A stretch of DNA of 64,000 bases. Source: Candidatus Omnitrophota bacterium (GTDB taxonomy: Bacteria; Omnitrophota; Gorgyraeia; Duberdicusellales; 4484-171). The notes beneath the pieces were generated by a model that searched no databases, was not told the origin of the DNA, and saw only the letters and a program-made list of their open reading frames with translations. The translations under genes and the position numbers were made by a program. Positions 18,937 to 56,003 of this stretch are shown here, one piece after another. Position 1 is the first letter of the stretch, and each line of letters opens with the position of its first letter. The stretch lies in the NCBI GenBank assembly GCA_021735655.1, contig JAIPGM010000004.1:1-64000 (forward strand), written 5' to 3'.

Positions 18937-20062
18937 TGATTAACTTATCTAATATCTGTTTTTTATGCTCGCTGGTCAACGAAAACCGCAAGCGAGCCTC
19001 ATTCTTAGGCACAGTAGGTGGCCTTATCGGAAGAACCCAATAGCCCCTAGACTTAAGCTCCTGACTTATTTTAACCGATCTTTGACTGTCGCCGACAATC
19101 CAAGGTATTATCTGAGAAGCACCTCTCAATTCAAGCCCCTGTTTCTTTAGCTGATTATAAAAATAGTCAGCATTATCAAGAAGGGTTTTCCTCCTGAATG
19201 GCTCAGTCGCTACCAAATCTAAACTAGCTAGGTTGGAAGCTATGACCGAAGCCGGCAAGGCTGTAGAATAAATAAAACTGCGACACTTATTTATTAAGTA
19301 TTGCTTTACTTTTTCTGAGCAAGCAAGATAAGCCCCAAAACTTCCCAAGGCCTTAGAAAAAGTTCCCATTATTAAATCGACTCTATCAGCTAAATTATAT
19401 TCTTCAACTAGACCTGAGCCATTTTGGCCAAATATTCCGGTAGCATGAGCTTCATCAACCATTAACTTACAGTTGTACTTATCTTTTAATATAACAATTT
19501 CCGAAATGTTAGCCTTGTCACCATCCATACTAAAAACAGTCTCAGTAATTATCGCCGCCGCCTTGAATTTATTTCTTTCTTTTTTTAAAAGCATCTTAAG
19601 ATGATCTAAGTCATTGTGCTGAAACCGAAATAATTTGGCACCGGAAAGACTTATCCCATCAATTATACTGGCATGACTTAGACGATCAGAAAAAATAACA
19701 TCGCCTCTTCCCCAAAGAGCACTGACTATACCTAAATTAGCCTGATAACCAGAGTTGAAAACTAAAGCCGCTGGCTTACCCTTAAATACTGCTAGTCTCT
19801 CCTCTAATTGATGGAAAATTTCTAAGTCGCCGCTTAAAAGACGTGAGGCTGAGGAACCGGTACCGAATTGATCCAGGGCCTTTTTTGAGGCCACCTTTAG
19901 CTTAGGGTGGCTGGACAAACCTAGGTAGTCGTTCGACGAAAAATCAACATACTCCCGAGAGTCAATCCAAATAGTCCCTTTCAATCTAAGACTGGCCGGA
20001 CTTAAAGTCCTCAGGAGATTATTATCTTTTTGTATTTTAAAAAAATCTTCTATTTTCTCCAT
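18905..20062 (-). CDS. bioF: 8-amino-7-oxononanoate synthase
   Basis: Alpha-oxoamine synthase family. PLP lysine motif GTFSKALG. Length 385 aa. Confidence 0.9.
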   Translation of the reverse strand: MEKIEDFFKIQKDNNLLRTLSPASLRLKGTIWIDSREYVDFSSNDYLGLSSHPKLKVASKKALDQFGTGSSASRLLSGDLEIFHQLEERLAVFKGKPAALVFNSGYQANLGIVSALWGRGDVIFSDRLSHASIIDGISLSGAKLFRFQHNDLDHLKMLLKKERNKFKAAAIITETVFSMDGDKANISEIVILKDKYNCKLMVDEAHATGIFGQNGSGLVEEYNLADRVDLIMGTFSKALGSFGAYLACSEKVKQYLINKCRSFIYSTALPASVIASNLASLDLVATEPFRRKTLLDNADYFYNQLKKQGLELRGASQIIPWIVGDSQRSVKISQELKSRGYWVLPIRPPTVPKNEARLRFSLTSEHKKQILDKLINDVISINRQF

Positions 20063-20964
20063 AAATCCTCTATTTGCTTAATCAACTTATAATCTTCTTT
20101 TGGCTTCTGACCCTTAACCGTGAGATAGCCACCAATCAACATACCATTGGCTCCAGCCATAAAACCTTGACTCTGATGATCCTTTAATATTGTTTCCCGA
20201 CCAGCCGCTATCTTGATAATCTTATCTTTTAAAATTATTCTAAAAATACATATTGTCCTTATCGCATCCTCATAAGTTATTGGCTTAATTGACTCTAGGG
20301 GTGTTCCTTTAATCGGAACCAAAAAATTTATTGGCACTGAATCAGCATTAAGCTCTTTTAAAATATAAGCCATATCAAATCTATCCTGCCAGCTCTCACC
20401 CATGCCAACTATTCCGCCGCTACAAACTTCTAAGCCAACCTCTTTTGCTGCTTTTATAGTATCAACTCTTTCCTTAAAGCTGTGAGTAGAAACAATTCGA
20501 GGATAAAAATTTTCTGAAGTTTCTATATTATGATGATAGCGAACTAATCCAGACTGTTTTAATTTTTCTAAATCAGACTTAGGCAATGCCCCTAAAGATC
20601 CACAAACAGTAATATCAAAATTATCTTTTATCTCAACGATACTTGAAATTATCACCGCTAGCTCTTCGGCTGTTAAGCGATTACCGCTGGTAACAATTCC
20701 AAACTTTTTAGCTCCAATAGCCTTAGCCGCTTTAGCTGCGGCTATGATTTCTTGTTTAGTTTTAAGTGGATAAGTAGAAATATCAATTCGATGCTTATGA
20801 GATTGGGCGCAAAACTTACAGTCTTCGCCACAAGATCCGGATTTAGCGTTTAAAATCGAACAAAGCTCTAGCTCTTGACCCAAAAACTTTTGCCTGATTT
20901 TATTGGCTTGAATAAGTAATTCGGAAAGCGGTGATTGCAATAGGCTTAAATCTTCTTTTCCCAC
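20050..20964 (-). CDS. bioB: biotin synthase (radical SAM)
   Basis: CGEDCKFCAQS (CxxxCxxC) cluster motif. Length 304 aa. Confidence 0.9.
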   Translation of the reverse strand: MGKEDLSLLQSPLSELLIQANKIRQKFLGQELELCSILNAKSGSCGEDCKFCAQSHKHRIDISTYPLKTKQEIIAAAKAAKAIGAKKFGIVTSGNRLTAEELAVIISSIVEIKDNFDITVCGSLGALPKSDLEKLKQSGLVRYHHNIETSENFYPRIVSTHSFKERVDTIKAAKEVGLEVCSGGIVGMGESWQDRFDMAYILKELNADSVPINFLVPIKGTPLESIKPITYEDAIRTICIFRIILKDKIIKIAAGRETILKDHQSQGFMAGANGMLIGGYLTVKGQKPKEDYKLIKQIEDLWRK

Positions 20965-20972
20965 TAACTATC

Positions 20973-21024
20973 ATTATATTAAGGCTAATTTATTTGTCAA
21001 CCAAATTAGATAGTTAGTTTACAA
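20973..21024 (-). promoter_or_regulatory. bioO-like BirA operator overlapping a consensus promoter for bioBFHCDA
   Basis: Inverted repeat TTGTCAACC (20994-21002) ... AGTTTACAA (21016-21024), compared with E. coli bioO TTGTAAACC...GGTTTACAA. On the minus strand the -35 TTGACA sits inside a half-site, followed by a 16-nt spacer and a -10 TATAAT (20973-20978). Confidence 0.65.
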
Positions 21025-21991
21025 TTACTTTTATAATATCCCCGGCTGAAACCTTAGTGATAAGCCCATTATTGCTACGCAAAAGTAAATAGCCCTTTTC
21101 ATCAATTCCTTGGGCTTCTCCTTCAATCATCCGGTCAAAAATCTTAACCCTTATGCGTTTGCCCCAAAGAACACAAAATTTACTCCATTCTTTAAGCAAA
21201 CTAGAAAAACTGTCTTTTTTGGCCTCTCTGTAGCAAGTTTCAATTTCTCCAAGTATGGCTCTAGCAATTTCGACCCGCTTAAACTTCTTTCTAGTATTAA
21301 GAAGTAATGAGGTTGCTTCCGGCGGTAAATCTTTTGAGTTAATATTTACTCCTACTCCAACTACTATAAAATTCACTCTATCGGTCTCAGCGTTAATCTC
21401 ACAAAGTACTCCACCTAACTTTTTACCCGCAAGAATAATATCATTGGGCCATTTAACTTGACAATTAATGCCGGTGGCTTTCTTAATGGCCTTGATTACA
21501 GCTAAGGCAATAACCAAACTAATTTGTGAAACATCGCCCAAAAGAAAAAAACTCGGCCTCAACAACAAAGAAAAGTAAATTCCCCCTGATGGAGAGATCC
21601 ATTTACGCATCAGGCGGCCTTTTCCTTTTTTTTGAGTTTCAGCAAATACAACTGTTCCCTCCGGTGCTCCATCTAAACCGAGCTCTCGACCAAAATCTTG
21701 AGTAGAACCTAAGCTATCATAGTAATGAATTTGTCTGGCTATGAGCTTTGTCTTTAGATTATGCTTTATCTCTTCAGGATAGAATTTATCCGGCACTGAA
21801 ACTAAACTATAACCTCGATGAGGTACAGCTGTAATTTCATAACCTTTTTCAGTAAGATTTAAGATGTGTTTCCAGAGAGCCTGACGACTAATCTTTAACT
21901 TTTTGGCTAGTTCTTCCCCAGAAGAGTAGCCGGATCCACCCCTTAAAGCTTCTAATATTGCATAGTCTAGATTTTTGTTGCTAGTTTTCAT
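21014..21991 (-). CDS. birA: bifunctional biotin-protein ligase / bio operon repressor
   Basis: N-terminal winged HTH, a BPL catalytic domain (GRGRLMRKWISP) and a C-terminal SH3-like domain. Length 325 aa. Confidence 0.9.
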   Translation of the reverse strand: MKTSNKNLDYAILEALRGGSGYSSGEELAKKLKISRQALWKHILNLTEKGYEITAVPHRGYSLVSVPDKFYPEEIKHNLKTKLIARQIHYYDSLGSTQDFGRELGLDGAPEGTVVFAETQKKGKGRLMRKWISPSGGIYFSLLLRPSFFLLGDVSQISLVIALAVIKAIKKATGINCQVKWPNDIILAGKKLGGVLCEINAETDRVNFIVVGVGVNINSKDLPPEATSLLLNTRKKFKRVEIARAILGEIETCYREAKKDSFSSLLKEWSKFCVLWGKRIRVKIFDRMIEGEAQGIDEKGYLLLRSNNGLITKVSAGDIIKVIVN

Positions 21992-42794: not shown

Positions 42795-43238
42795 TTAAAT
42801 ATTATACATAAAAACACTCTTAGCATTCTTATCATTATATCGTTTAACTAAAGTTTCAAGAGTCACTGAATCCAAAGCCTTGATAATACTATTTCCGGTC
42901 TCATCCCAAAGTTGACGAACAATTGATACTGAGGCTGGTTGAAGACTATTATCATCTTGCAAATTATCAATTAAAGTTAAGCCACCTTCAAGAATTTCCA
43001 CTATTTCTCTAACCGTTATCTCTCCGGGAGCTTTCGCTAAAGAATAGCCACCGTGGGCTCCACGAAAAGAATTAACTAACCCTTGGGTCCGTAAAGGAAT
43101 AATGATCTGACTAAGGTACTTTTCAGAAATATCTTCCTTCCGGGCAATGTCTTTTAAAAAAACTGGCCCCTTATCGCAGGCCAAGGCTAAGGCCAGCATC
43201 AACCGAGTTCCATATCGACTACGAGCTGAAATTTTCAT
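42795..43238 (-). CDS. Rrf2 family transcriptional regulator (IscR/CymR-like)
   Basis: N-terminal Rrf2 HTH (SARSRYGTRLMLALA). Length 147 aa. Confidence 0.8.
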   Translation of the reverse strand: MKISARSRYGTRLMLALALACDKGPVFLKDIARKEDISEKYLSQIIIPLRTQGLVNSFRGAHGGYSLAKAPGEITVREIVEILEGGLTLIDNLQDDNSLQPASVSIVRQLWDETGNSIIKALDSVTLETLVKRYNDKNAKSVFMYNI

Positions 43239-43284: not shown

Positions 43285-44013
43285 TCAAATTCTATTACTG
43301 ACCCCTAATTTGTCAAGGAAGTTATCACGACCGATCTCTTCGATTAAAAGAGCCAATCTTTGCCTGGGTTTAGCATTATCTTTGAAAAAATTAACTACCT
43401 TCTCGATTAAAGAAAGCACCTCATCTTCGGTAAAAATTTTACCTAGCTTGAATCCCAACCGGGGAGTTCTCCCTCCACAGCCACCCAAATAAACAGCATA
43501 GCCAACTATTTTCTCAGAATGATTAAGGTCAATCTCACCGTGTATACCAATTTCAGAACTTTCGGATCGAGTGCAACGATTAGGACAACCGGAAATCGCA
43601 ATTTTAAATTTATGCGGTAGATCCAATCCGCAAACAATATTTAACTCCTTTTCTATTCTTTCAGAAAGAGAAAAGGTATTAACCAAACCTCGCTTACACC
43701 AGTTATTACCCGGACAAACAGTTGTAACTCTAAGTCGCGGGCCAGAAGTTCCAACTTTAATTTCAGCGAGTCTTAGCTCTTTCTCCACTTTCCCAATGTC
43801 TTCGAAACGAATAAAAGGAATTTCTACTGACTGACGAACTGTAAAATGAACAAAACTCCTAGCATACTTTTTAGAAATCTGAGAAAGTTTCTCTAGCTGC
43901 TCAGCTGAAGAGTTACCGGCAAGCATCCTTGTACGTAAAGTAAAATAGCCATCTTCTCGGGCCTTCAAAAACCCTCTCTTTTTTAAAGCATCTAGGTCTA
44001 TCTTATCCTTCAT
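43285..44013 (-). CDS. small siroheme/[4Fe-4S] sulfite (or nitrite) reductase, alSiR-type
   Basis: Siroheme-4Fe4S coupling motifs CPGNNWC (C-x5-C) and CPNRC (C-x3-C). Single NiR/SiR ferredoxin-like half domain plus a heme-binding domain. Length 242 aa. Confidence 0.7.
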   Translation of the reverse strand: MKDKIDLDALKKRGFLKAREDGYFTLRTRMLAGNSSAEQLEKLSQISKKYARSFVHFTVRQSVEIPFIRFEDIGKVEKELRLAEIKVGTSGPRLRVTTVCPGNNWCKRGLVNTFSLSERIEKELNIVCGLDLPHKFKIAISGCPNRCTRSESSEIGIHGEIDLNHSEKIVGYAVYLGGCGGRTPRLGFKLGKIFTEDEVLSLIEKVVNFFKDNAKPRQRLALLIEEIGRDNFLDKLGVSNRI

Positions 44014-45290
44014 TAGCTAACCTCTTTTTTTACAAAACAACTTAAAGTCTTTTTAACCGAAATTATTGATTTAGCAATATCAGCTGAACTATGGGCAAAA
44101 GATAAAAAATTTGCCTCATATTCCGAAGGGGCAAAGTAAACCCCTTGCTCCAAAGCAGACCGATAAAATAAACTAAACAAAGCCCTGTCGGAAAACTTAA
44201 AGCTAAACATTGATCGATATCTACTTATCTTTAAATCTATACCATTAGCAACAGCATATTTACTTATCGAATCACAAAACTGCTTAGCGAACTGGTTAAT
44301 TATTTCGTAATTTTTAGCTTCCTGGTTCAAAATTCTCAAGGTTGCAATGCCGGCTTGCATAACAATTGGATTACCGGAAAAAGTTGACGCCTGATAGACC
44401 TCTCCCTGAGGAGCTAAACAATTCATAATCTTAGAGCTGCCACCGTAGGCACCAATCGGTAAACCACCACCAATAATCTTTCCTAAACAGATTAAATCAG
44501 CATTTATGCCAACAGTTTGTAAAAAAGAACCAAAGTTAAACCTAAAACCGGTAATCACCTCATCGGCGACAAGCAAACTATCATGCTTTTCAGTAATCAA
44601 CCGCAAAGCTTTCAAAAATTCTATATCCGGAAGGGTTACTCCGTAATTTCCACCGACTGGTTCAACCAAAACTGCAGCGATTGACTTACCGTACTGCTTA
44701 AAAATGCTATTCAAGGCTTCGGTATCACCATAATCAACAATTAAAGTATGTTTTATAAACTCAAGCGGTACACCTTTGCTTAAAGGAATCTGTCCGGTTG
44801 CCAAGCCCGAACCAGCTTCAGCCAATAAATAATCGGCATGGCCATGATAAGAGTTTTTGAACTTAACTATTTTATCTCTTTGAGTGTAGCCACGAGCTAG
44901 ACGAACCGCACTCATTAAGCTTTCAGTCCCTGAATTAACAAAACGGATCTTTTCGATAGCCGGGATTGCTGCGTTAATGGTTCGGGCAAGCTCAACTTCA
45001 CTTTGATGAGTTGCGCCAAAACCAAACCCTTTAGTTAATTGATTTCTAACTGCTTCAACCACTTCTGGACGAGCCTGACCCAAAATCATTGCACCAAAAG
45101 ATGAACAATAGTCAATAAACTCTCTACCTTCATAGTCGTATATCTTTGAACCATGGCCTTGCTTTAATAATACCGGTTCACCGCCGACATAGGAAAAACT
45201 CCGTACCGGACTATTCACTCCGCCAACTAAAAACTGTTTGGCTTCTTTAAACAACTGACTGTTCTCTGAGTAATATTCTTTCTTGTTCAT
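44013..45290 (-). CDS. hemL: glutamate-1-semialdehyde 2,1-aminomutase
   Basis: Class III aminotransferase with PLP lysine LGKIIGGG. The ORF track start at 45323 probably overextends; the likely start is MNKKEYY at 45290. Confidence 0.9.
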   Translation of the reverse strand: MNKKEYYSENSQLFKEAKQFLVGGVNSPVRSFSYVGGEPVLLKQGHGSKIYDYEGREFIDYCSSFGAMILGQARPEVVEAVRNQLTKGFGFGATHQSEVELARTINAAIPAIEKIRFVNSGTESLMSAVRLARGYTQRDKIVKFKNSYHGHADYLLAEAGSGLATGQIPLSKGVPLEFIKHTLIVDYGDTEALNSIFKQYGKSIAAVLVEPVGGNYGVTLPDIEFLKALRLITEKHDSLLVADEVITGFRFNFGSFLQTVGINADLICLGKIIGGGLPIGAYGGSSKIMNCLAPQGEVYQASTFSGNPIVMQAGIATLRILNQEAKNYEIINQFAKQFCDSISKYAVANGIDLKISRYRSMFSFKFSDRALFSLFYRSALEQGVYFAPSEYEANFLSFAHSSADIAKSIISVKKTLSCFVKKEVS

Positions 45291-46221
45291 ATTTTTTTTG
45301 CCAATAAGCAATATCAGCTGCATGGTAACTGATTATATAGTCTGCTCCCGCACGCTGGATTGCTCCAATAAGTTCGAACACAAAGTCTTCCTCCGACCAA
45401 AAACCCTGTTGGGCGCCAAGCTTAGCCAAGGCATATTCACCACTTACATTGTAAACAGCTAAAGGAAAATTAAATTGCCTTTTAGCCTGAACAATTATAT
45501 CCAGATAAGCTAAAGCCGGCTTAACCATTACAATGCCTGCTCCTTCTTTGATATCTTGTCTTATCTTCTCTAGGGCAGTTTCTCGATCATGATAATCAAG
45601 TTGATAGGCTCGACGATCTCCAAAACGCGGAGCTGAATCAGCGATTTCACGAAAAGGACCATAAAATTGAGAAGCAAACTTTGCTGAATAAGCCATAATT
45701 TTAACCTGATTATAACCATTTTGATCAAGCTTATTGCGAATTGCCCGAACTTGATTCTCGGCCATTGCTGAAGGACAAACAAAATCAGCGCCAGCTTTTG
45801 CATGTAAAAGTGCCATTGCCGCAAGAGCTTTAAGAGTTAGGGTATTATCAATGGCGACTTGACCCTCCAGAACTATTCCACAATGACCATGTGAACTATA
45901 AGCACACAAGCAAATATCAGTAAAAATAGTAAAACTAGGATAACGAGACTTAATAAAACTTATAGCCTCGCAAAGAAAATAATTACTCTCCCAAGCTGAT
46001 TTTCCTCGCCAACTTTTTTGAACTGGCAGACCAAAAAGTAAAATATTCCTAATCCCAAGATGATCAAGATTAACCAGCTCATCCTTTAAGGCTTCTAAAG
46101 AATATTTAAAAACTCCTGACATTGACTTAACCTCATCGGCCGGACCTTCCTTTTCTTTTACAAACAAAGGATAGATCAACTTTGAAAGCGATAAATTAAA
46201 CTTATTACTTTCTTTTATCAT
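45247..46221 (-). CDS. hemB: porphobilinogen synthase (ALA dehydratase)
   Basis: Active-site Lys region VMVKPAL. C-terminal YHAADIAYW. Length 324 aa. Confidence 0.9.
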   Translation of the reverse strand: MIKESNKFNLSLSKLIYPLFVKEKEGPADEVKSMSGVFKYSLEALKDELVNLDHLGIRNILLFGLPVQKSWRGKSAWESNYFLCEAISFIKSRYPSFTIFTDICLCAYSSHGHCGIVLEGQVAIDNTLTLKALAAMALLHAKAGADFVCPSAMAENQVRAIRNKLDQNGYNQVKIMAYSAKFASQFYGPFREIADSAPRFGDRRAYQLDYHDRETALEKIRQDIKEGAGIVMVKPALAYLDIIVQAKRQFNFPLAVYNVSGEYALAKLGAQQGFWSEEDFVFELIGAIQRAGADYIISYHAADIAYWQKKYEQERILLREQSVV

Positions 46222-46954
46222 TTCTAAATTGCCTCACTCTCTCTCTAACTACTTCACCAACGATTAAAACCGCCGGTGGTTTAATTTTCGATTTTTTAGA
46301 TCTTTTTTCAATAGTTCCTATTGTTGCCTGTAAAATCCGCGACTTTTTTGTAGTTGCCCGTTCAATAAAAGCGCAAGGTACTGTATCTTTTCGACCGGAC
46401 TTGCGCAAAGCTTTAACTACATTTCCAATATTAGCTACGGCCATAAGATAAACTAAGGTTTCACAATCAGGGGCATCTATCAAAGCTTTTTTGTCTTTCT
46501 TTCTGCCAGTTAAAATGGCCACCGATGAAATTCGATTTTTTATTGTAAGCGGGATTTCAGCACTTAAAGGCCCTGCCAAAGCTGAAGTTATCCCGGGAAT
46601 AATTTCGTAGTTAACTTTTTTTAAATTAAGATACCTTGCTTCCTCAGCTCCCCGGCTAAAAATAAAAGGGTCCCCCCCTTTAAGCCGAACTACCGTTTTA
46701 AAAGCCAAGGACTTCTTGTATAAAAGCCGATTGATTTGGTTTTGCTCTTTTAAATGTAAACCGTCACTTTTACCAACACAAATCTTCTCACAAGACGGTT
46801 GAACTTCTCTTAATAATTCCGGAGCCGATAAAAAATCATAAAGAACACAATCGGCTGTACGAAGAGCCCTGACTCCCTTTAGGCTAATCAATTCAGGATC
46901 TCCTGGTCCAGCTCCAACTATATATACTTTTCCTTTATTATTGTTAATTGACAT
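46205..46954 (-). CDS. cobA: uroporphyrinogen-III C-methyltransferase (SUMT)
   Basis: VYIVGAGPGDPELISLKG N-terminal SAM motif of class III tetrapyrrole methylases. Length 249 aa. SUMT domain only, with no fused HemD. Confidence 0.85.
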   Translation of the reverse strand: MSINNNKGKVYIVGAGPGDPELISLKGVRALRTADCVLYDFLSAPELLREVQPSCEKICVGKSDGLHLKEQNQINRLLYKKSLAFKTVVRLKGGDPFIFSRGAEEARYLNLKKVNYEIIPGITSALAGPLSAEIPLTIKNRISSVAILTGRKKDKKALIDAPDCETLVYLMAVANIGNVVKALRKSGRKDTVPCAFIERATTKKSRILQATIGTIEKRSKKSKIKPPAVLIVGEVVRERVRQFRNDKRK

Positions 46955-47600
46955 TTAGCCTCCGAATGATTTCCAATAAATCATCCCTTTTTCTAAATAG
47001 CTGAATTGCCAAACGGCCCTGTAAATGGTGTGGTTCAATAATACTAAAAGGAATAATTTGTGAAATGCGTTTTTCTAATCCCAAACGGATTAGAGCTGCC
47101 TTAGCCATAACAACTGCGTCATATTTTCCGCAATCAACTTGGGCCAAGCGTTCTTCAATGTCACCACGAATATCCAAAGCAACTAAATCCTCTCGATAAT
47201 TTAAAATTGCTTGTTTGCGATTTTTGCTACTGGTACCTATTCGAGATCCCTTGGGCAGCGTATCTAAGGTAAAGTTGCCACGAACGACCAAACAATCGGC
47301 CCGGCTTATAGATTTGGTTAGCGCCGCCACTATCAAACTTTTAGGGATTTCATCTTCTAGATCCTTTGCACTATGCACAGCAAGATCTATTTCACCACTC
47401 AATAAAGCTGCTTCAATTTCATAGGTAAAAAAATCACTCCCTTCCTTAAAAGCCAAAGGTGTCTTTTTATCTTTATCCCCTTTAGTCTTAATTACAACAA
47501 CCTCAAAGTTAAAAAACGGCAAAAGCTGTTTAACTTCCTCAACCTGTTTAAGCGCTAACGAACTCGGCCGAGTTCCTATTTTGATATAGCGAATCATCAA
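46944..47600 (-). CDS. hemC: hydroxymethylbilane synthase, truncated (domains 1-2 only, lacks cofactor-binding domain 3)
   Basis: Aligns to E. coli HemC residues about 1-238 (IGTRPSSLALKQ, IGTSSKNRKQA, YDAVVMAKAALIRLGLE). Stops 11 nt into cobA. No region equivalent to Cys242/domain 3. Confidence 0.7.
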   Translation of the reverse strand: MMIRYIKIGTRPSSLALKQVEEVKQLLPFFNFEVVVIKTKGDKDKKTPLAFKEGSDFFTYEIEAALLSGEIDLAVHSAKDLEDEIPKSLIVAALTKSISRADCLVVRGNFTLDTLPKGSRIGTSSKNRKQAILNYREDLVALDIRGDIEERLAQVDCGKYDAVVMAKAALIRLGLEKRISQIIPFSIIEPHHLQGRLAIQLFRKRDDLLEIIRRLNVN

Positions 47601-48561
47601 TCTGCCTCCTAATAGCTAACACCTGTTCTTCTATGGCCGCTTCAGCTAATTTTACATAGCTGCTCATAGATTGATTATGTCTTTTGCAAAGATCACTTAA
47701 CGAATCAAGGTTTTTTAAAAAAACGCCTGGAATTTTTGTCAACTCAAAATCTATATCTCGCGGTAAAGCTAAATCATAAACATAAAGTGGCTTTTTACGC
47801 AACCGAATAACCTTGACTAATAACTTGCTACTCAGCACCTGGTGAGGGCTTGAAGTTGCACTCACTAAACAATCTGCCCCTAAAAGCTCTTCTGATAAAT
47901 TATCTAGTAGAAAAACTTTGGCAGAATTTTTCCTAGCTAGACTTTGAGCCTTTTTTATCTTCTTTTTAGCGAAAAAATATAGTTCGAGATCAGTAAATTT
48001 ACTTTCTGAAAACATCTTAGCTATTTTTCCAGTACCGACAATAAGCACTTTTTTCTTACTAGCTAATCCGGTATTAAAAATAAGATCTTCTAAAACAATC
48101 TCGGAAATATTGTTTTCGTTACCGAATAAATCTAGCTGTTGACGTAAATCGTAGCTCGAAGTTAAAACTCCTCGCCAAAGATTCTTAATTGGCCAAGAAA
48201 AACTATCCCTCCTAACCCAAGAATCTAATTGCTCAAGAATTTGCCTTTCTCCGACAATTTGTGACTCAAGACCGCAAGCCAACCTCAAAGCTTTACGGAT
48301 AACACCCTGTGTATCCTGTATAAAGTGGGCTTTTTCAAAAATCGGATGGAACTGGCTCTTAAAATTTGCAATATCTTTTATTAATAGCTCTGTGTTTTCA
48401 GCAAGACCATAAATTTCTACTCGATTGCAAGTAAATAGCACCTCGGATTCAAAAACTGATTCTTTCCAGAACCGTACAATCTGATCACGCCGCAGGCAAG
48501 CATGTTCCCTTAGCGATAAAGGTGTATTCTTATAGTCTATTGCGATAGAGTAAAAATTCAT
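47548..48561 (-). CDS. hemA: glutamyl-tRNA reductase (short form)
   Basis: N-terminal catalytic domain with the Cys-containing motif (EVLFTCNRVEIY) and an NADPH-binding GxGxxA/G (IVGTGKIAKM). Only 337 aa, so probably lacks most of the C-terminal dimerisation helix. Confidence 0.8.
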   Translation of the reverse strand: MNFYSIAIDYKNTPLSLREHACLRRDQIVRFWKESVFESEVLFTCNRVEIYGLAENTELLIKDIANFKSQFHPIFEKAHFIQDTQGVIRKALRLACGLESQIVGERQILEQLDSWVRRDSFSWPIKNLWRGVLTSSYDLRQQLDLFGNENNISEIVLEDLIFNTGLASKKKVLIVGTGKIAKMFSESKFTDLELYFFAKKKIKKAQSLARKNSAKVFLLDNLSEELLGADCLVSATSSPHQVLSSKLLVKVIRLRKKPLYVYDLALPRDIDFELTKIPGVFLKNLDSLSDLCKRHNQSMSSYVKLAEAAIEEQVLAIRRQIDDSLYQNRNSAEFVSA

Positions 48562-49003
48562 CCCACTTCTCCTTGAGATAATTTTTTAAATCTCGGGATA
48601 AAACCGGATCCTTGCCATCAGTATACACTGCGATTAAAGCTTTTTCCGTTCGCAGAACAGCTGGTGAAATAAAATCACTCAAAAGAGGTTTGTCTACAAC
48701 ATTAACTGAAATGCCCTTGACTTTAGCCCAATTGCTCACCTGTTCATTTAGGAAAGAATCATCGGTTGCCGAGATAACTAAAGTTGCTCCGAAGATGTCT
48801 GATTCTTTAGCTTTGCGCTCCAACCATTCAATAGCCCCCTGCTTGGCTAACTCTCTTAACTCTACTGTGACTTTAGGCGCAATCAGAGTAATTCTGGCTT
48901 CAGCCAAAAGCAAAGCCTCAATTTTACGCTGGCCTACTTTACCACCGCCAACCACGATGGCTTTCTTGTTTTTAATTTTAAGCGCAACTGGTAAATAATT
49001 CAT
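48530..49003 (-). CDS. sirC: precorrin-2 dehydrogenase / sirohydrochlorin ferrochelatase (siroheme synthase N-terminal domain, SirC/Met8-like)
   Basis: Rossmann motif KKAIVVGGGKVGQRK. Length 157 aa. Confidence 0.65.
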   Translation of the reverse strand: MNYLPVALKIKNKKAIVVGGGKVGQRKIEALLLAEARITLIAPKVTVELRELAKQGAIEWLERKAKESDIFGATLVISATDDSFLNEQVSNWAKVKGISVNVVDKPLLSDFISPAVLRTEKALIAVYTDGKDPVLSRDLKNYLKEKWDEFLLYRNRL

Positions 49004-49015
49004 AAACTCTTTAAC

Positions 49016-49741
49016 TTATATCCCATCTCCGTCTAAATTAGACTTTAACGGCCGAGTGTGGATTCCACACTCACCACCGCATTTGCTAGTTCCAATCCAA
49101 CGTCCGGCCCGCTCATTGTCGTCATTAGTGATTCTGGTGCAAGGAGAGCAACCTAAAGAACGATAACCCTCCTTATAAAGAGGGTTCACCTTAACTTCAT
49201 ATAAGGCTAAATACTGCCAAACTTCTCTTTCTTTCCAAATGAGAATCGGATTAAGTTTTATCAATCCTTTATCGCGTTCCTCAACTTCCTTGTAATCGGT
49301 CCGGGTTCGACCCTCAGTACAACGCAATCCAGTAACCCAACAGGTAACTTTCATCTCATCCACCGCTCTCTTCACCGGCTCAACCTTTAAAACCTCACAA
49401 CATTGATCAGGATCAACATTGTATAATTCGGGCGATATCTCTGAATCATTCTTATATACTGCCAATTCCGGATAACGGACAACTTCTTGATTCATAAACT
49501 CAACTGTTTCTTTGGGCTTGAACCGAGTGGTTACAATAAACCCTTTTATTTTTGGGTCAACCTTCTTTGCCAAATCCCAAACCACAACTGAATCCTTACC
49601 TAAACTGTTAGCAACAACCAGGCCATCACCATATTTATCATATGCTTCTCTTATAAGTTGTAAGGATCGATCCACCTTTTGCTTAAAATTTAAAGTTTCA
49701 ACCAATACTTTCAAATCGTCTTGTGTGCCTAACAAACTCAT
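49016..49741 (-). CDS. cysH: adenylylsulfate (APS) reductase, thioredoxin-dependent, Fe-S type (CysH family)
   Basis: PP-loop-like SLGKDSVV. C-terminal ECGIH catalytic motif. CC...CxxC cysteines (DQCCEV; GCSPC) typical of 4Fe-4S APS reductases. Length 241 aa. Confidence 0.8.
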   Translation of the reverse strand: MSLLGTQDDLKVLVETLNFKQKVDRSLQLIREAYDKYGDGLVVANSLGKDSVVVWDLAKKVDPKIKGFIVTTRFKPKETVEFMNQEVVRYPELAVYKNDSEISPELYNVDPDQCCEVLKVEPVKRAVDEMKVTCWVTGLRCTEGRTRTDYKEVEERDKGLIKLNPILIWKEREVWQYLALYEVKVNPLYKEGYRSLGCSPCTRITNDDNERAGRWIGTSKCGGECGIHTRPLKSNLDGDGI

Positions 49742-49788: not shown

Positions 49789-50010
49789 TTAGATTTGATA
49801 CTCTATTTCCTTAATTCTTCCGAATTTTACCTTATTCCAAATTCGTTCATGTATATAGTAAAGGAATATCTTTACTGTATTTGCGGCAATGCCCACTACC
49901 AATGACTCTTTAACGTCTTTGGTATAAATATAGATAGCAATTATCGTAGTCAAAAAAGCAATTACCCGCCAAGTTAAAGATTTGACTAAAGATCGTTTTG
50001 GATGTTCCAT
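49789..50010 (-). CDS. small membrane protein (DUF2061-like)
   Basis: 73 aa with two TM helices and an LTWR motif. Confidence 0.35.
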   Translation of the reverse strand: MEHPKRSLVKSLTWRVIAFLTTIIAIYIYTKDVKESLVVGIAANTVKIFLYYIHERIWNKVKFGRIKEIEYQI

Positions 50011-50270
50011 TTACTCACTAAATAGTATAAAAATGTATTTTATACACTACCTATTCTATCAAAATACTAGCTAATACTTTCAAAAAATATAGGCGCACAA
50101 ACGCCTTTTTTAATCACTATCAATGCAATCTCTTTGATAGAGATTAAAATATACCATATTATTAAGAATTGTCAAGGATAAATTTTAAGTTTTTTAAACC
50201 TTGTTTCTAGTTGCTAAGTAGCCCAAATATGGTATTATTAAGGATAATAATCAAAATTAACCCCTGGGGA

Positions 50271-50924
50271 ATGAAGAGCATTAGCAATTACAACTTATAT
50301 TTAGTTACTGGTGAGCAACGCTCAGCTACAAAAAAAACCCTAGAAGTAGTGAGGTTAGCCATTAACGGCGGGGCAAATATTATCCAGCTACGTGATAAAA
50401 ATATGGCCCGGTCTGAGCTAGTCAGCTTAGGAAAAAAACTCTCGACATTAGCTAAGAGTAAGAATATAGTATTTATTGTTAACGACGACCCGGATTTAGC
50501 CGCTGAGCTAGATGCTGACGGAGTGCACCTAGGACAAACTGACATAGAAAAATACTCGGTAGAAAAAACAAGAAAACTAATCGGTAGGAATAAAATTATT
50601 GGCCTATCAACCCATTCCCTAGAACAAATAGAACAAGCTAATAAGCTTGATATTAATTACATTGCCTTTGGACCATTATTTGAAACTAAAACTAAAAACT
50701 ACTCAATTGGAACTAGAGATTTAACTAAAGCTTTATCGTTATCAAAATTTCCTTTAGTTTGTATTGGTGGTATAAACTCAAATAATATCGAAGAAGTTTT
50801 AAAGCTGGGCGCAACTAATATTGCTATGATTCGAGAAATTACTGAAAGTCAAGATATAGAAAAAAAAGTGAAACAGCTAAAAAGCCTGATAACCAAATAT
50901 AAAAAAAATGCAGATAACAATTAA
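50271..50924 (+). CDS. thiE: thiamine-phosphate synthase
   Basis: LYLVTG...IIQLRDK motif. The ORF track starts at 50211, but the likely start is MKSISNY at 50271. First gene of thiESGHF. Confidence 0.8.
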   Translation: MKSISNYNLYLVTGEQRSATKKTLEVVRLAINGGANIIQLRDKNMARSELVSLGKKLSTLAKSKNIVFIVNDDPDLAAELDADGVHLGQTDIEKYSVEKTRKLIGRNKIIGLSTHSLEQIEQANKLDINYIAFGPLFETKTKNYSIGTRDLTKALSLSKFPLVCIGGINSNNIEEVLKLGATNIAMIREITESQDIEKKVKQLKSLITKYKKNADNN

Positions 50925-51108
50925 CGGGAAAAAAGAAATTATCGATAACCCTAAATCTCTCCTTGAGCTTATCGGTGAAAAAAAACTAAATAAAGAAAAA
51001 ATGGTAGTTGAGTTAAATCTCAAGATTATTCCCCGTGACAATCTTAAAAGTACTCAAATTCAAGAAGGAGATTCAATTGAATTTGTTAGCTTCGTAGGAG
51101 GAGGTTAA
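50908..51108 (+). CDS. thiS: sulfur carrier protein ThiS
   Basis: 66 aa beta-grasp protein ending in GG. Lies between thiE and thiG. Confidence 0.8.
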   Translation: MQITINGKKEIIDNPKSLLELIGEKKLNKEKMVVELNLKIIPRDNLKSTQIQEGDSIEFVSFVGGG

Positions 51109-51882
51109 ATGTCGGATTCATTAATAATCGCCGGACAAGAAATCAAAAACCGCCTTTTCGTGGGGACCGGTAAGTTTCCCAACAAACCAATCATAAAGGA
51201 AGTTTTAGAACAGGCTAAAACAGAAGTTGCAACCGTTGCTTTGCGCCGAATTGACCTAGAATCAAAAGAAGATAATATTCTTGATTACATTCCAACTAAC
51301 TGCACAGTTATGACTAACACCTCTGGTGCAAGAAACGCCCAGGAAGCAATCCGTATTGCTAGATTGAGTAAAGCTGCTGGCTGTGGAAATTGGATAAAAC
51401 TAGAGGTAATCGCCGACAATAAACACCTCCTGCCTGACAATCTAGAAACTTTAAAAGCTACTGAAGTTTTAGCCAAAGAAGGTTTTATAGTCCTGCCCTA
51501 TATGAGCCCTGATTTATCAGTAGCTAAAAAATTGATCGAGGTCGGAGCTGCTGCAGTTATGCCACTGGGCTCACCAATCGGCTCAAAACGCGGAGTAAAA
51601 ACTGCGGAATTAGTCAAAATTCTAATTAAAGAAATTGCTGAACCAATTATCGTTGACGCTGGAATTGGTTATCCATCAGAAGCAGCTTACTGTATGGAAC
51701 TAGGCTGTGCGGCGGTCTTAGTTAATACGGCCATAGCCACTGCCAAAGATCCGGTTAAAATGGCTGAAAGCTTCAACTTGGCAGTCCGTGCCGGCCGCCT
51801 GTCTTATCTTAACGCAACTAAAAGCTCTGGACAGGCATCAGCATCTTCTCCGCTTACCGGTTTCCTGCAAACAAGTGAATAG
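51109..51882 (+). CDS. thiG: thiazole synthase
   Basis: TIM-barrel of 257 aa. Conserved Lys Schiff-base region (NTSGARNA) and typical ThiG length. Confidence 0.9.
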
Positions 51883-51884
51883 CT

Positions 51885-52955
51885 ATGAGTTTTTATAATA
51901 TTTATCACAAATACAAAAACTGCTCCTTTGAAGAACTACCCAACCAAGAGCTAACCAAGCTTCTTTCTCTTGAGGCTGAAAAATCTTTAGAAGCAATGGC
52001 TCAAAAAGCCAAAACTTTGACCTTGCAGAATTTCGGAAAAACAATTAGCCTCTATACCCCACTCTACCTATCAAACTATTGCGAGAATGAATGCCTTTAC
52101 TGCGGATTCAATGCAAACAATAAAATTCCAAGAAGGAAACTAAAAATTGATGAGCTAAAAAAAGAAGCTAAATTCATCGCTAAGACCGGCCTGCAACACA
52201 TACTAATTCTTACTGGCGAATCGAAAAAGCTAAGCCCACTCTCCTACATAAAAGAATCTGTAAAAATACTAAATAAATTATTTAGTTCAATATCAATTGA
52301 AATTTACCCCTTAAGTCAAACAGAATATAAAGAACTTATCGCCGCGGGTGTCGACGGTCTAACAATTTATCAAGAGGTATATTCTCAATCAGAATACAAA
52401 AAACTCCATCCGGCTGGTCCAAAACAAGATTATCAATTTAGACTCGATGCTCCAGAAAGGGCTGCCCGAGCCGGTATACGTACCATTAACATCGGAAGCC
52501 TGCTAGGGCTAGCTCCTTGGCGAAAAGAAGCTTTTTTCATGCTAAAGCATGCTGAATACCTGCAAAATAAATACCCAGAAATAGAAATGAGCATTTCCTT
52601 ACCGCGGCTAAGACCTCAATTTAATAACTTTCAAACTCCTTATGAGGTAAGTGATAAAAACATCGTCCAAATAATTACTGCCGCCAGGATATTTATGCCA
52701 CGCTTAGGAATTACCCTATCAACCCGGGAAAATTCTCAGCTTCGCAATAACCTAATTAAATTAGGCATAACTAAAATGAGCGCTGGTTCAACCACTGCTG
52801 TCGGCGGTCATACTTTGGAAAAAACTTACATTAAAAATTCACTCCAGTTTGAAATTTCTGACAAACGAGATGTTTCTCAAATCAAAATAATGTTGCTTAA
52901 AGAAGGATACCAACCAGTGCTAAAGGACTGGGTCGGAGCACTGCAAAATGAATAA
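51885..52955 (+). CDS. thiH: 2-iminoacetate synthase (tyrosine lyase, radical SAM)
   Basis: [10 protein letters not shown] CxxxCxxC motif. Length 356 aa. Sits in the thi operon. Confidence 0.85.
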
Positions 52956-53559
52956 CTTTGAAAAAGAAATCATTAAGTACTTTGGTAAAGATCAATTTAA
53001 AAAAATTCAATCAGTAACCATCGGCATTGCTGGGCTTGGTGGCCTTGGCTCAAACTGCAGCCATAATCTTATCCGCTGCGGTTTTAAAAAACTAATAATT
53101 GTTGATTTTGATAAGGTTGAGCTTTCAAATTTAAACCGCCAATTTTACTTCTTAAATCAAATAGGCAAGCGCAAAGTTGATGCCCTTAAAGAAAATCTGC
53201 TTAAAATTAACCCCGACATCAAAATCACGACTTATTGTGAAAAATTAGAAAAAAACAACCTAAAAAATATTTTTAAAGGTTGTTCTATTATCATTGAAGC
53301 TTTCGATAAAGCCGAATACAAAAGCTTAATCGTTGAAACTTTCCTCCCTACCGATAAGTTTATTGTTTCGGCCTCAGGCTTAGCCGGATATGGAAAAAGT
53401 GATGAAATAAAAATTCACCGCCTAAGAAAAAATCTGGCTATTGTTGGTGACCTTAAGTCCGAAGCCAGCCAAGACTTGCCACCGCTTTCTCCACGGGTAA
53501 ATATTGCGGCAGCTAAACAAGCTGATGTGGTATTAAACTATATATTAAAAAACATTTAA
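52948..53559 (+). CDS. thiF: ThiS adenylyltransferase (E1-like, ThiF/MoeB family)
   Basis: Gly-rich nucleotide loop GLGGLGS and the LSNLNRQ motif. Length 203 aa. Confidence 0.75.
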
Positions 53560-53563
53560 TATC

Positions 53564-54844
53564 TTAGAATGACTTAAACTGTTCTTTTGGCAAGTTAAAA
53601 TAGCCCATTTTGAGCTTAGGAAACTCTCTTTTGATAGATTTAAGCAGATATAAAATACCTTGAGCTTTTACATTTTTGGTTGGAATTATTTTTCGATAGA
53701 TCTCCGGATCCATATTCAAATTACGCCATTGAATCATATCAATCCCACTATTTTTTATAAGTTTAATCAAACTTTTTATTTGTTTGGTTGAATCTGAAAA
53801 ACCGGGAAAAACAAACAGATTTATCGAAACAAACTTATTATACCTTTTGGCTATCGCTATTGACTTTAAAACATCTGAAAAACTATATCCTTGGGGTTTA
53901 AAATATAGATCATAAAACCTCTTATCTGGACTATTCAAGCTCACCCGAAAAGAATCAATCCCAGCTAAGCATAAATTTTTAATCTTATTGGGCAAGCTAG
54001 CATTAGTATTCATATTGATCGTGCCTCGGGAAGTCAACTTCCTAACCTCAACCACAGCCCTAGCAAGGCTATCTGCGCCTAGCAATGGTTCGCCTTCGCA
54101 ACCCTGACCAAAGCTAACTATAGCTTCTTGGGCCACCCTCAAATGGTTACTCATAACCTCAACCAGCTCATCTCGATCAGGCATAAAACTAATCCGGTTA
54201 TGCGAAGCACAAAGACCTTCCTCTTGATGGCTCAAGCAACCCAAGCATTTTGCATTACAACTTCTGGCTGTCGGCAAAGGTGCCTCCCACCGCTGAAGAA
54301 ACAAATTTTTCGCGGCTAAGCAATTATAATTAAGAGCGCAATTAGCTAAGTGCTGATAAAGCCTATTTTTAGGATATCTTTTAAAAAAGCTTCTCACCCC
54401 TTCTTTAACTCGCTTACCATCGTAAAACCACGGGCTTTGGCGGACTCTTTTATCTACTCTTATAGCGCTAACAACAAAACGACCTCGATGAAAACCACAA
54501 GCAGTATAGGCCCAAAGCGGTAGACATTTTTTACTAATAACCTTTACTACTGGTAGATGTAACCTTAAATAAGCTGGAATCGGAAAAACTGCAACAGCAA
54601 AAACATCCTGGCCCTTAAATTTATCTAAAAGCTCAACTTTCTTGCTTTGAGGATTAAATCCCAGGGGTTTTCGCCCAGGCAGATAAAAAAGAGTTGAGCC
54701 CTTAGGCATTGCAATTATCTCCTGGCCCTTAGGTAAAGAATACTTTCCTAAGCTTTCAACCACCATCTTTAAGGTTGAGTGGTGGTAAACCTTACCCTTA
54801 GAATCGGAAAATAATAAATCAGGTAATTTGGCTATCGAACTCAT
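53564..54844 (-). CDS. radical SAM protein with about 190-aa N-terminal domain of unknown function
   Basis: CNAKCLGC (CxxxCxxC) at residues about 196-203. C-terminal half shows a TIM-barrel-like radical SAM pattern. The N-terminal domain has no recognisable motif. Length 426 aa. Confidence 0.5.
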   Translation of the reverse strand: MSSIAKLPDLLFSDSKGKVYHHSTLKMVVESLGKYSLPKGQEIIAMPKGSTLFYLPGRKPLGFNPQSKKVELLDKFKGQDVFAVAVFPIPAYLRLHLPVVKVISKKCLPLWAYTACGFHRGRFVVSAIRVDKRVRQSPWFYDGKRVKEGVRSFFKRYPKNRLYQHLANCALNYNCLAAKNLFLQRWEAPLPTARSCNAKCLGCLSHQEEGLCASHNRISFMPDRDELVEVMSNHLRVAQEAIVSFGQGCEGEPLLGADSLARAVVEVRKLTSRGTINMNTNASLPNKIKNLCLAGIDSFRVSLNSPDKRFYDLYFKPQGYSFSDVLKSIAIAKRYNKFVSINLFVFPGFSDSTKQIKSLIKLIKNSGIDMIQWRNLNMDPEIYRKIIPTKNVKAQGILYLLKSIKREFPKLKMGYFNLPKEQFKSF

Positions 54845-54869
54845 AAATCGCTATTTAAGGCGGGGTGAA

Positions 54870-56003
54870 TTAATTAAAAATCAAAATAAGACTACCGAGA
54901 ACAAAAAAAACAAAAGCCATAATTAACTTTATTAAGCCGACGTTTTTCTTTAAAAAGTTATTAAACTTTTGGGATCCTACCCCCACTAATGAAAGAATAA
55001 ACACGATCACTAAAGGAAAAATAAACATCAAATTATAAAGCACCAGATAAAACCAAGCTCTCAAGCGTAGCTGATCGCTCTTTAAAACAAAAACAATAGT
55101 CGGAAGATACAACTGTCCAGTACAAGCTGCTTCGAGCAAAGAGACCATAAACCCAACCGAAAAAGAAGTAATTGCTAACCCCCAAAGGCTATCCTTTTTC
55201 TTATCGCGAAGCTTTGAGCCAATAGTAAGATTTATTTTTTTCTTTAAGAATTTTGGCAACTGCAACAAAGCACCCTCTGACTTCTTGGTTATTTTAAAAT
55301 GGATATAATCATAAATTGCAAAGATACCCATAAAAAAGCAAAAAAAGCCGACAACATAATAAAACCACTTTATAAAAAAAGTAATATTACCCAAAGAGTA
55401 AAAAAACTCAAAAACTCCCAGACCAATTAAAAGATAAGTGATAAAAACAGCAAGGCAATATGAAATTCCTACATAAATTATCTCTCTCTTTTTGTAGCCA
55501 TAAATCGAAAGGAATGATATAAAGAATACAATCACCGCAAAGGCACAAGGATTAACCCCATCGGCCAAACCGCTACCCAGTATTGCAAGAAGCGAAAACT
55601 TTTTAAAAATATCCATTAAGTTTTGTTTAGAAAAGGCCGGTACTCCTACTTTAGTATCAATTACATCCTGAATAGCCTGATCAAGCCCAGCCTGGATTTC
55701 ACCAAAACCAACAAACATCTTATCCCCAACCACAATGCTAGGAACTAGAGCTTTTTCGCGGCCAAACTGCTCACTCAACGATTTAAGCATCTCTAGACTG
55801 GCTGGCTCGCTAACCCCTGACTCCAACCAATCAGCTTTACCTTTATATTTTTCTTTTAGCTCAGGCAAAAGTTCAGCCTTAACTTTATGGCAAACATGAC
55901 AACTAGAAGAAGTAAATACTAAAATTGTTGGCTTATCTTGCGCATAAGAATATCCAATGAGGCCTAAAAAGGCCATAGTTAAAATAATAATTATCTTTCT
56001 CAT
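54870..56003 (-). CDS. thioredoxin-fold (CxxC) domain fused to CcdA/DsbD-family membrane thiol-disulfide transporter
   Basis: Signal peptide followed by SSSCHVCHK (CxxC). Membrane domain with GVNPCAF and EAACTGQ cysteines, typical of CcdA/DsbD TM1/TM4. Length 377 aa. Confidence 0.6.
   Translation of the reverse strand: MRKIIIILTMAFLGLIGYSYAQDKPTILVFTSSSCHVCHKVKAELLPELKEKYKGKADWLESGVSEPASLEMLKSLSEQFGREKALVPSIVVGDKMFVGFGEIQAGLDQAIQDVIDTKVGVPAFSKQNLMDIFKKFSLLAILGSGLADGVNPCAFAVIVFFISFLSIYGYKKREIIYVGISYCLAVFITYLLIGLGVFEFFYSLGNITFFIKWFYYVVGFFCFFMGIFAIYDYIHFKITKKSEGALLQLPKFLKKKINLTIGSKLRDKKKDSLWGLAITSFSVGFMVSLLEAACTGQLYLPTIVFVLKSDQLRLRAWFYLVLYNLMFIFPLVIVFILSLVGVGSQKFNNFLKKNVGLIKLIMAFVFFVLGSLILIFN

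Follow-up and report, generated by a model that had tools for sequence, protein, structure and literature searches.

A HemC without domain 3 in the siroheme operon of an Omnitrophota bacterium

The siroheme operon and its short hemC gene

The 64,000-nucleotide stretch of DNA analysed here (the window; positions 1 to 64,000 of contig JAIPGM010000004.1, assembly GCA_021735655.1, from a Candidatus Omnitrophota bacterium) carries on its minus strand, between 42.8 and 50.0 kb, a gene cluster in the order DUF2061-cysH-sirC-hemA-hemC-cobA-hemB-hemL-small sulfite reductase-Rrf2 (Table 1). Its hemC gene encodes a homologue of hydroxymethylbilane synthase that consists of domains 1 and 2 only. Reviews from 2020 and 2026 describe this enzyme as a three-domain protein whose dipyrromethane cofactor is held covalently by a conserved cysteine (PMC7242693, PMC13564367), and no description of a HemC without domain 3 was found in the full-text literature searched. 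The protein of the window is a real variant of the textbook enzyme, widespread and apparently undescribed before, coupled in this lineage to a gap at HemD, the uroporphyrinogen-III synthase.

Table 1. Features of the siroheme operon in the window (aa, amino acids).
Feature	Position	Strand	Assignment and remarks
Small membrane protein with DUF2061, at the head of the conserved cluster	49789..50010	minus	PF09834; same place in L001, L002, L004, L091, L094
cysH (PAPS/APS reductase)	49016..49741	minus	PF01507; NF002537 171.6 bits
sirC/cysG-N-like precorrin-2 dehydrogenase, possibly also chelatase, 157 aa	48530..49003	minus	NAD_binding_7; TIGR01470 123 bits
hemA (glutamyl-tRNA reductase), 337 aa, without C-terminal dimerisation domain	47548..48561	minus	GlutR_N + Shikimate_DH, no PF00745
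hemC, two-domain hydroxymethylbilane synthase homologue, 217 aa	46944..47597	minus	PF01379 only, TIGR00212
hemC stop / cobA start overlap	46944..46954	minus	ATGTCAATTAA, read from the sequence
cobA (uroporphyrinogen-III C-methyltransferase), 249 aa, no HemD module	46205..46954	minus	PF00590 only; NF004790 253 bits
hemB (porphobilinogen synthase)	45247..46221	minus	PF00490, 394 bits
hemL (glutamate-1-semialdehyde aminomutase), called product 413 aa	44013..45254	minus	NF000818 521 bits; gene call in L001
Siroheme/[4Fe-4S] sulfite-reductase-type protein, 242 aa, presumed siroheme consumer	43285..44013	minus	NIR_SIR_ferr + NIR_SIR; same position in related operons
Rrf2-family regulator, cluster end	42795..43238	minus	PF02082; conserved beside the operon

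The open reading frame of hemC spans 46944-47600, and its likely start is the ATG at 47597, 7 nucleotides past an AGGAGG. The product is 100% identical to a 217-residue database protein (P0001) from a Candidatus Omnitrophica metagenome-assembled genome (MAG). Pfam recognizes PF01379 alone, over residues 6-207 (199.7 bits; cut-off 22.1), with no match to PF03900, and TIGR00212 scores 202.2 bits (cut-off 164) while covering profile positions 1-215 of 293. In E. coli HemC a hinge at residues 218-221 is followed by domain 3 (222-313), with the dipyrromethane on Cys242 (PMC3945110). The C-terminal residue of the window protein aligns with E. coli His222 (MAFFT), placing its end point at the hinge preceding domain 3, at about residue 222. 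The first-pass annotation of this DNA had likewise read hemC as domains 1 and 2 only; its estimate that the alignment to E. coli HemC ends at about residue 238 fits human HMBS, where the alignment stops at 236-240, and does not fit E. coli numbering. The hemC TAA (46946-46944) lies within ATGTCAATTAA, the same stretch that holds the ATG of cobA at 46954, and because the stop overlaps this start there is no coding space for domain 3, as had been noted before. The protein thus satisfies the PF01379 and TIGR00212 cut-offs of its family and carries the catalytic residues, and what it lacks is domain 3 and the cofactor cysteine.

By Pfam and NCBIfam assignment, hemA, hemL, hemB, hemC, cobA and the precorrin-2 dehydrogenase of the route from glutamyl-tRNA to siroheme all lie within the co-directional cluster at 44013-49003; no SirB/CbiX ferrochelatase was seen. 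The earlier remark that hemA and sirC are also short is confirmed. HemA, without PF00745, aligns with residues 5-325 of the 404-residue Methanopyrus (M. kandleri) enzyme 1GPJ. The 157 residues of SirC align with CysG 1-144 and with residues 24-168 of the 223 of B. megaterium SirC; the C-terminal helical part is absent, and the protein is nearer to the bifunctional CysG-N (E 7.5e-20) than to the dehydrogenase-only B. megaterium SirC (8.4e-16). The genes are tightly packed, with hemA overlapping the start of hemC by 50 nucleotides (47548-47597) and sirC overlapping hemA by 32 nucleotides (48530-48561), and relatives fuse these overlapping genes into SirC-HemA-HemC (684-739 residues) or HemA-HemC proteins.

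Conservation of the short gene

The closest relatives of the window protein were taken as the 120 best matches (protein clusters) among 5.8 billion proteins, at 55-69% identity. All 120 clusters are 195-232 residues long with PF01379 as the sole domain, 61 of them have exactly 217 residues, and those that are named come from Omnitrophota. Among 30 close members there are 41 invariant columns, with a mean column identity of 65%. Seven independent contigs share the operon, with a hemC of 215-238 residues abutting a cobA of 236-251 residues: the window itself (L001), L002 (a 502-kb contig), L004 (a 762-kb contig, GCA_964629655.1), L007, L091 (Ca. Gorgyraea atricola), L092 and L094 (Ca. Omnitrophus magneticus). 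In L007, SirC, HemA and HemC form a single protein of 684 residues. Both the gene order and the hemC/cobA junction recur on contigs from different samples. The hemC of the window is an intact gene under selection.

The first-pass annotation had considered a frameshift or assembly error, which is ruled out by the 120 short, PF01379-only relatives and by the recurrence of the junction on independent contigs. The broader form of that idea, in which errors of sequencing or assembly, or decay into a pseudogene, have shortened a true HemC of about 300 residues, was prompted only by the way hemC stops at the start of cobA, and no evidence in its favour was found. The length and end point are shared by over 100 homologues found in assemblies from NCBI, JGI, ENA and Logan, the identical protein occurs in two independent assemblies, the active-site residues are invariant, and the module has the same end point within multidomain fusions, so that we give this explanation practically no credence.

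A clade of HemC modules without domain 3

An exhaustive HMMER search against 1.84 billion cluster representatives yielded 679 proteins with E<=1e-30. Architectures were counted with local hidden Markov models (HMMs) on the best 150 of these 679 and a few cluster mates, giving 155 representatives at 50% identity, ten of which were checked against Pfam. Domain 3 is missing from 110 of the 155, the remaining 45 being canonical HemC proteins that possess it. The domain-3-less modules occur as free two-domain proteins (31), as HemC-CobA-HemD (32, and 3 partial), as SirC-(HemA)-HemC (26), as HemC-HemD (10) and as HemA-HemC (8). Domain 3 is truly absent in the fusions, because the next enzyme begins 10-25 residues past the point at which the window protein ends. 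Named members belong to Omnitrophota, Elusimicrobiota and Saganbacteria, to which contig titles add Caldisericota, Ratteibacteria, Brevinematia and Auribacter. The unusual compact enzyme that the first-pass annotation listed as one option is supported, and is far more general than was supposed.

When 204 domain-3-less modules were placed with 47 canonical ones in a neighbour-joining tree, 203 of the former grouped in one clade that contains no canonical sequence. This pattern suggests that domain 3 was lost a single time, long ago. On these sequences the clade is apparently monophyletic, domain 3 having been lost once and the short form having then spread across Omnitrophota and several mostly uncultivated phyla.

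Several loci add detail on the distribution and context of the short module. Contigs of MAGs titled Bacteroides fragilis, Planctomycetia or Planctomycetales carry an Omnitrophota-type operon with a two-domain HemC, and these taxonomic labels look unreliable (L072, CAMDBI010000033.1; L025, L036, L037, L047, L054, L055, L057, L060, L062 and L069). In an Omnitrophota group comprising L012, L014-L019 and L054, domains 1 and 2 of HemC are joined to HemD in one protein, with no CobA. The HemA upstream is full length in L012, L014-L016 and L018 (open reading frames of 422-469 residues) and the operon contains no sulfite reductase, so that the two-domain HemC also occurs outside siroheme/sulfite-reductase clusters and alongside a full-length HemA. 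A close relative (P0118) in L093, at 5486-6654, keeps only sirC and hemC together, beside ThiS/ThiF/JAB and O-acetylhomoserine sulfhydrylase genes, with the other pathway genes elsewhere.

Active site, cysteines and predicted structure

The catalytic cleft of the clade is that of the canonical enzyme. In E. coli numbering, Arg11, Ser13, Gln19, Phe62, Lys83, Asp84, Ser129, Arg132, Arg149, Arg155, Ala170, Gln198 and Gly199 are near-invariant in both groups, and the catalytic and carboxylate-binding residues are conserved at 97-100% in the clade. Asp84, Lys83 and the four arginines 11, 132, 149 and 155 are all present in the window protein and in 99-100% of the 204 domain-3-less modules. Arg131 has been relaxed: it is Asn in the window protein and is kept in 54% of the clade, versus 100% of canonical enzymes. 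In E. coli the substitution R131L abolishes cofactor binding (PMC3945110).

A set of substitutions marks the clade, with Tyr22 replaced by Glu (97% of the clade), Ile48 and Leu49 by Asp and Lys (85% and 80%), Gly60 by Asp (90%), Leu61 by Phe (97%) and Met82 by Ala (96%); Cys99 is replaced by Thr in 90%. The signature positions lie mostly in the active-site lid (residues 42-60) or, in simulations, make contact with the chain as it grows or with the product as it leaves (PMC3945110).

The clade has no conserved cysteine in place of Cys242. The highest frequency of cysteine in any alignment column is 41% of the clade, and 24 of the 204 modules, as well as 13 of the 120 closest relatives, contain none at all. 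At least some members of the clade therefore cannot carry a thioether-linked cofactor of the known type. Two candidate attachment sites were considered and rejected. Cys102 (E. coli Ala107) occurs in 86% of the close relatives and in 41% of the whole clade, which is not the pattern of a universal site; among the 120 closest sequences this position is Cys in 103, Ser in 12 and Ala in 5. A cofactor cysteine on a fused partner was rejected likewise, as the HemD modules fused to short HemC have no conserved cysteine.

The AF2 model of the window protein has a pLDDT of 89.3 and a pTM of 0.84, and only the lid (residues 49-54) is disordered, as it is in crystal structures. All 217 residues superpose on domains 1 and 2 of E. 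coli 1PDA (TM 0.89, root-mean-square deviation 1.9 Å).

Searches for domain 3 elsewhere

Another option raised at first pass was a split gene with domain 3 encoded elsewhere. A docking partner of this kind has some structural appeal, as domain 3 is an autonomous fold on a hinge (PMC3945110) and could exist as a separate, cysteine-bearing polypeptide that docks onto the two-domain protein; the genomes, moreover, extend beyond the window and loci that were scanned. A domain-3 HMM built from 43 canonical seeds was run with filters off against the six-frame open reading frames of 95 loci (1.32 Mb). Its only matches were the canonical deltaproteobacterial HemC proteins of L082 and L088, with none at E<=1 in the 93 clade loci. 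In the 64 kb window there is no PF03900, and the six-frame search with the custom HMM (--max) gave a best E-value above 1. The cofactor-turn motif GGCxxP, present in 30 of the 43 canonical seeds, does not occur in the window or in L001-L005. The fusions to CobA and HemD leave no room for the domain. While the other pathway enzymes stay in the operon or are fused within it, domain 3 never does, and Arg131, which the E. coli enzyme needs to bind its cofactor, is often replaced in the clade. The split gene thus finds no support in these loci, and we consider a two-polypeptide enzyme very unlikely.

The missing uroporphyrinogen-III synthase

The first-pass annotation proposed to look for PF03900 and HemD in the rest of the genome; the search made here covered the window and found neither. 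For HemD it combined a Pfam scan of all sizeable open reading frames except two obvious transporters with custom HMMs on six frames (--max, best E-value above 1). No HemD (HEM4/PF02602) was detected between hemC and cobA, as had been reported, or anywhere else in the window, and none was found in the flanks of seven related operons.

This gap is not a general property of operons with a short HemC. A scan of GTDB (one genome per species) with an alignment of seven Omnitrophota-type HemD sequences gave 528 confirmed loci, and the best 80 of these, mostly from Omnitrophota, were examined. HemD lies inside the same operon in all 80, as CobA-HemD, HemC-HemD or HemC-CobA-HemD, and HemC, wherever it was detected in these 80, is short, with two deltaproteobacterial loci as exceptions. 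The usual partner of the two-domain HemC is therefore a canonical HemD. In most related operons the cobA slot is occupied by a CobA-HemD fusion of about 460-490 residues. The suggestion that HemD function is supplied non-canonically consequently falls for most relatives, which have an ordinary HemD in the operon, and survives for the subclade of the window only.

Operons that lack HemD group in a clade of their own, made up of 48 sequences together with Ca. Omnitrophus magneticus. It is nested within the HemD-bearing clade, the next branch being L022/L023 with CobA-HemD, and this nesting indicates a single loss of HemD. The HemC of the subclade has a fixed change of Pro86 to Glu (100%, against 0% outside), together with Gln12 to Pro (93%) and Arg131 to Asn or Lys, and these substitutions sit next to catalytic residues. 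The sulfite-reductase-type protein at 43285-44013, with one NIR_SIR_ferr and one NIR_SIR domain, is 231-262 residues long across the HemD-less operons; in HemD-bearing relatives the sulfite reductase at the same place has about 290-300 or about 770-800 residues.

Candidates for a separate HemD were sought and set aside. Two protein searches with Omnitrophota-type HemD modules (53 and 83 matches) gave none on the long contigs that carry HemD-less operons. Of the apparent stand-alone proteins, P0287 is a frameshifted HemC-CobA-HemD fusion; its source, L010 8686-11809, has hemC, cobA, hemD and hemB each in pieces on a 141-kb contig that is probably a long-read assembly. P0379 belongs to a coproporphyrin-type heme operon of an unrelated organism, and P0357 is encoded after a separate cobA in surroundings that contain no hemC. 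As substitutes for HemD, a 377-residue protein and radical-SAM pair near the operon is not conserved across the whole HemD-less clade, and DUF2061 is a membrane peptide.

One reading of the gap is that the subclade has no separate uroporphyrinogen-III synthase, and that its HemC closes the ring with inversion of ring D or the spontaneously formed type-I isomer is used. It draws on three observations, namely that on seven independent contigs HemD is all that the operon lacks between glutamyl-tRNA and sulfite reductase, that HemD was lost once and this state has been kept through divergence to 55% HemC identity, and that the changes particular to the subclade lie by catalytic residues. A type-I siroheme is not known from nature, which counts against this reading. 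Sister lineages with a two-domain HemC retain the canonical HemD, often fused, and the sole earlier claim of a bifunctional HemC, in Plasmodium, was disproved by experiment (PMC8698207). HemD is notoriously difficult to annotate: uroporphyrinogen-III synthases show little sequence conservation and frequently go unannotated, and some organisms that make heme have no annotated UroS (PMC13564367). We regard the absence of any such synthase as quite improbable. It is most likely that HemD of the subclade is encoded elsewhere in the genome, given how easily UroS escapes annotation (PMC13564367) and that the claim of a built-in cosynthase did not stand (PMC8698207).

Ca. Omnitrophus magneticus is a magnetotactic bacterium, and c-type heme is a component of magnetosome proteins. 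If this applies to it, the organism must obtain uroporphyrinogen III from some source.

Proposed function

The two-domain HemC is probably a functional hydroxymethylbilane synthase with non-canonical handling of its primer, with HemD activity in the window lineage coming from elsewhere or from an unknown enzyme. The conserved catalytic and chain-binding residues, among which Arg176 is also counted, make it most likely that four porphobilinogens are still polymerised into a linear bilane. As the domain-3 loop and its cysteine are absent and no other cysteine is conserved, the primer would probably be bound without a covalent link or via a different nucleophile, or else synthesis would start from free porphobilinogen. 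The remodelled lid, which has Asp/Lys at 48/49 and Asp-Phe at 60/61 and is accompanied by Glu22 and Ala82, may partly stand in for domain 3. In most relatives the bilane would be handed to the canonical HemD fused to CobA, while the subclade of the window would obtain uroporphyrinogen III from a HemD encoded elsewhere (most likely) or from an unrecognised replacement.

Several points weigh against this proposal. Hydroxymethylbilane synthase activity and the cofactor state of the clade are deduced from sequence only. The tree is a simple neighbour-joining tree of sequences picked by similarity to the query. Diagnostic substitutions occur in every clade, so the lid signature need not be functional. 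A Cys or Ser at E. coli position 107 could in principle attach a cofactor, yet the residue is Ala in 5 of 120. The scans for domain 3 and HemD covered only the 64 kb window and flanks of 6-10 kb.

The loss of the cofactor domain would inactivate the canonical enzyme, and the fold of domains 1 and 2 is that of periplasmic binding proteins; both facts would suit a protein that has ceased to be a bilane synthase and now, for instance, binds porphobilinogen or acts as a regulator, the real HemC being encoded elsewhere. We hold this to be highly improbable. In every operon the gene stands where hemC is expected, between hemA and cobA/hemD, and fusions join it to neighbouring pathway enzymes; Asp84/Lys83 and all chain-binding arginines bar Arg131 are invariant, and no second, canonical hemC was seen in any of the 93 clade loci. 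A bolder version of the synthase proposal joins two claims: that HemC is self-sufficient without the covalent, Cys-linked dipyrromethane regarded as universal (using free porphobilinogen, a non-covalent primer or a labile link in the lid or cleft), and that the subclade makes uroporphyrinogen III without canonical HemD, through HemC itself or an unrecognised, non-homologous synthase. We consider this combination rather unlikely on the sequence evidence.

Comparison with known systems

The canonical three-domain HemC (E. coli, 1PDA; TIGR00212; PF01379 plus PF03900) shares 35% identity with the window protein. It resembles it in the superposition of domains 1 and 2 at 1.9 Å, in Asp84/Lys83, Arg11, Arg132, Arg149, Arg155, Ser13, Ser129, Gln19 and Gln198, in its place in the pathway operon, and in a score above the TIGR00212 cut-off. 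The window protein differs by lacking domain 3 (222-313) with the cofactor turn and Cys242, by belonging to a clade without a conserved cysteine, by the replacement of Arg131, and by the clade-specific lid loop and positions 22 and 82 (Tyr and Met in E. coli). The roughly two dozen solved HMBS structures, unlike the window protein, all have at least 281 residues and all include domain 3.

A second point of comparison is NF002202 (PRK01066), which we take to be a chlamydial HemC model. Its 241 positions, like the length of the window protein, leave no space for domain 3. The alignment of the window protein covers positions 20-223 of 241 with 184.5 bits, below the model's cut-off of 251, so that it is not a member of that equivalog. 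All 30 relatives tested also match the model. No biochemical characterisation of the NF002202 group was found in the literature searched.

The nearest relatives outside the subclade carry CobA-HemD (K13542-type) or HemC-CobA-HemD fusions in the same operon, whereas in the window these activities are unfused and the HemD module is missing. HemC-CobA-HemD fusions were noted in Euryarchaeota in a 2024 survey, which does not mention the loss of domain 3 (PMC11237513). Plasmodium falciparum resembles the window lineage in having a tetrapyrrole pathway with HemC and no recognisable HemD; its HmbS, unlike the window protein, has domain 3 and makes only hydroxymethylbilane (PMC8698207). The two cases of a "missing UroS" also differ in that HemD is readily recognisable in sister lineages of the window operon. 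The subclade is thus a second, well-defined case of a missing uroporphyrinogen-III synthase, and one with close HemD-bearing relatives for comparison.

A clade that has kept the catalytic cleft without the domain and cysteine offers a direct way to ask whether a covalent cofactor is needed for pyrrole polymerisation. Pathway calls from metagenomes are affected as well, as genes of the clade are annotated as ordinary HemC and the HemD-less operons would score as incomplete. Whether Omnitrophota of the subclade can make siroheme for assimilatory sulfite reduction would depend on a source of HemD activity.

Other features of the window

At 53564-56003 on the minus strand, a 377-residue protein with no confident Pfam domain and a 426-residue radical-SAM protein lie beside a GH94 glycoside phosphorylase; this trio adjoins the operon in L001, L002 and L004 and does not do so in L091, L092 or L094. 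A thiamine cluster (thiE, thiS, thiG, a thiH-like radical SAM gene and thiF) at 50211-53559 on the plus strand is divergent from the siroheme operon. An Rfam scan of the window gave no family at threshold, the thiamine pyrophosphate riboswitch included.

Over positions 1-64000 the GC skew is negative in all 2-kb bins (cumulative -5.4), the minus strand carries about 90% of the genes, and the GC content is 35-43%. A biotin block at 15532-21991 (minus) comprises bioA, bioD, a methyltransferase and hydrolase pair (bioC/bioH-like), bioF, bioB and birA. Past it lie NifU/NifS-type genes and a copper-efflux block with CusA/B/C-like proteins, CsoR, YHS/cupredoxin proteins and CopA, at 23-36 kb.

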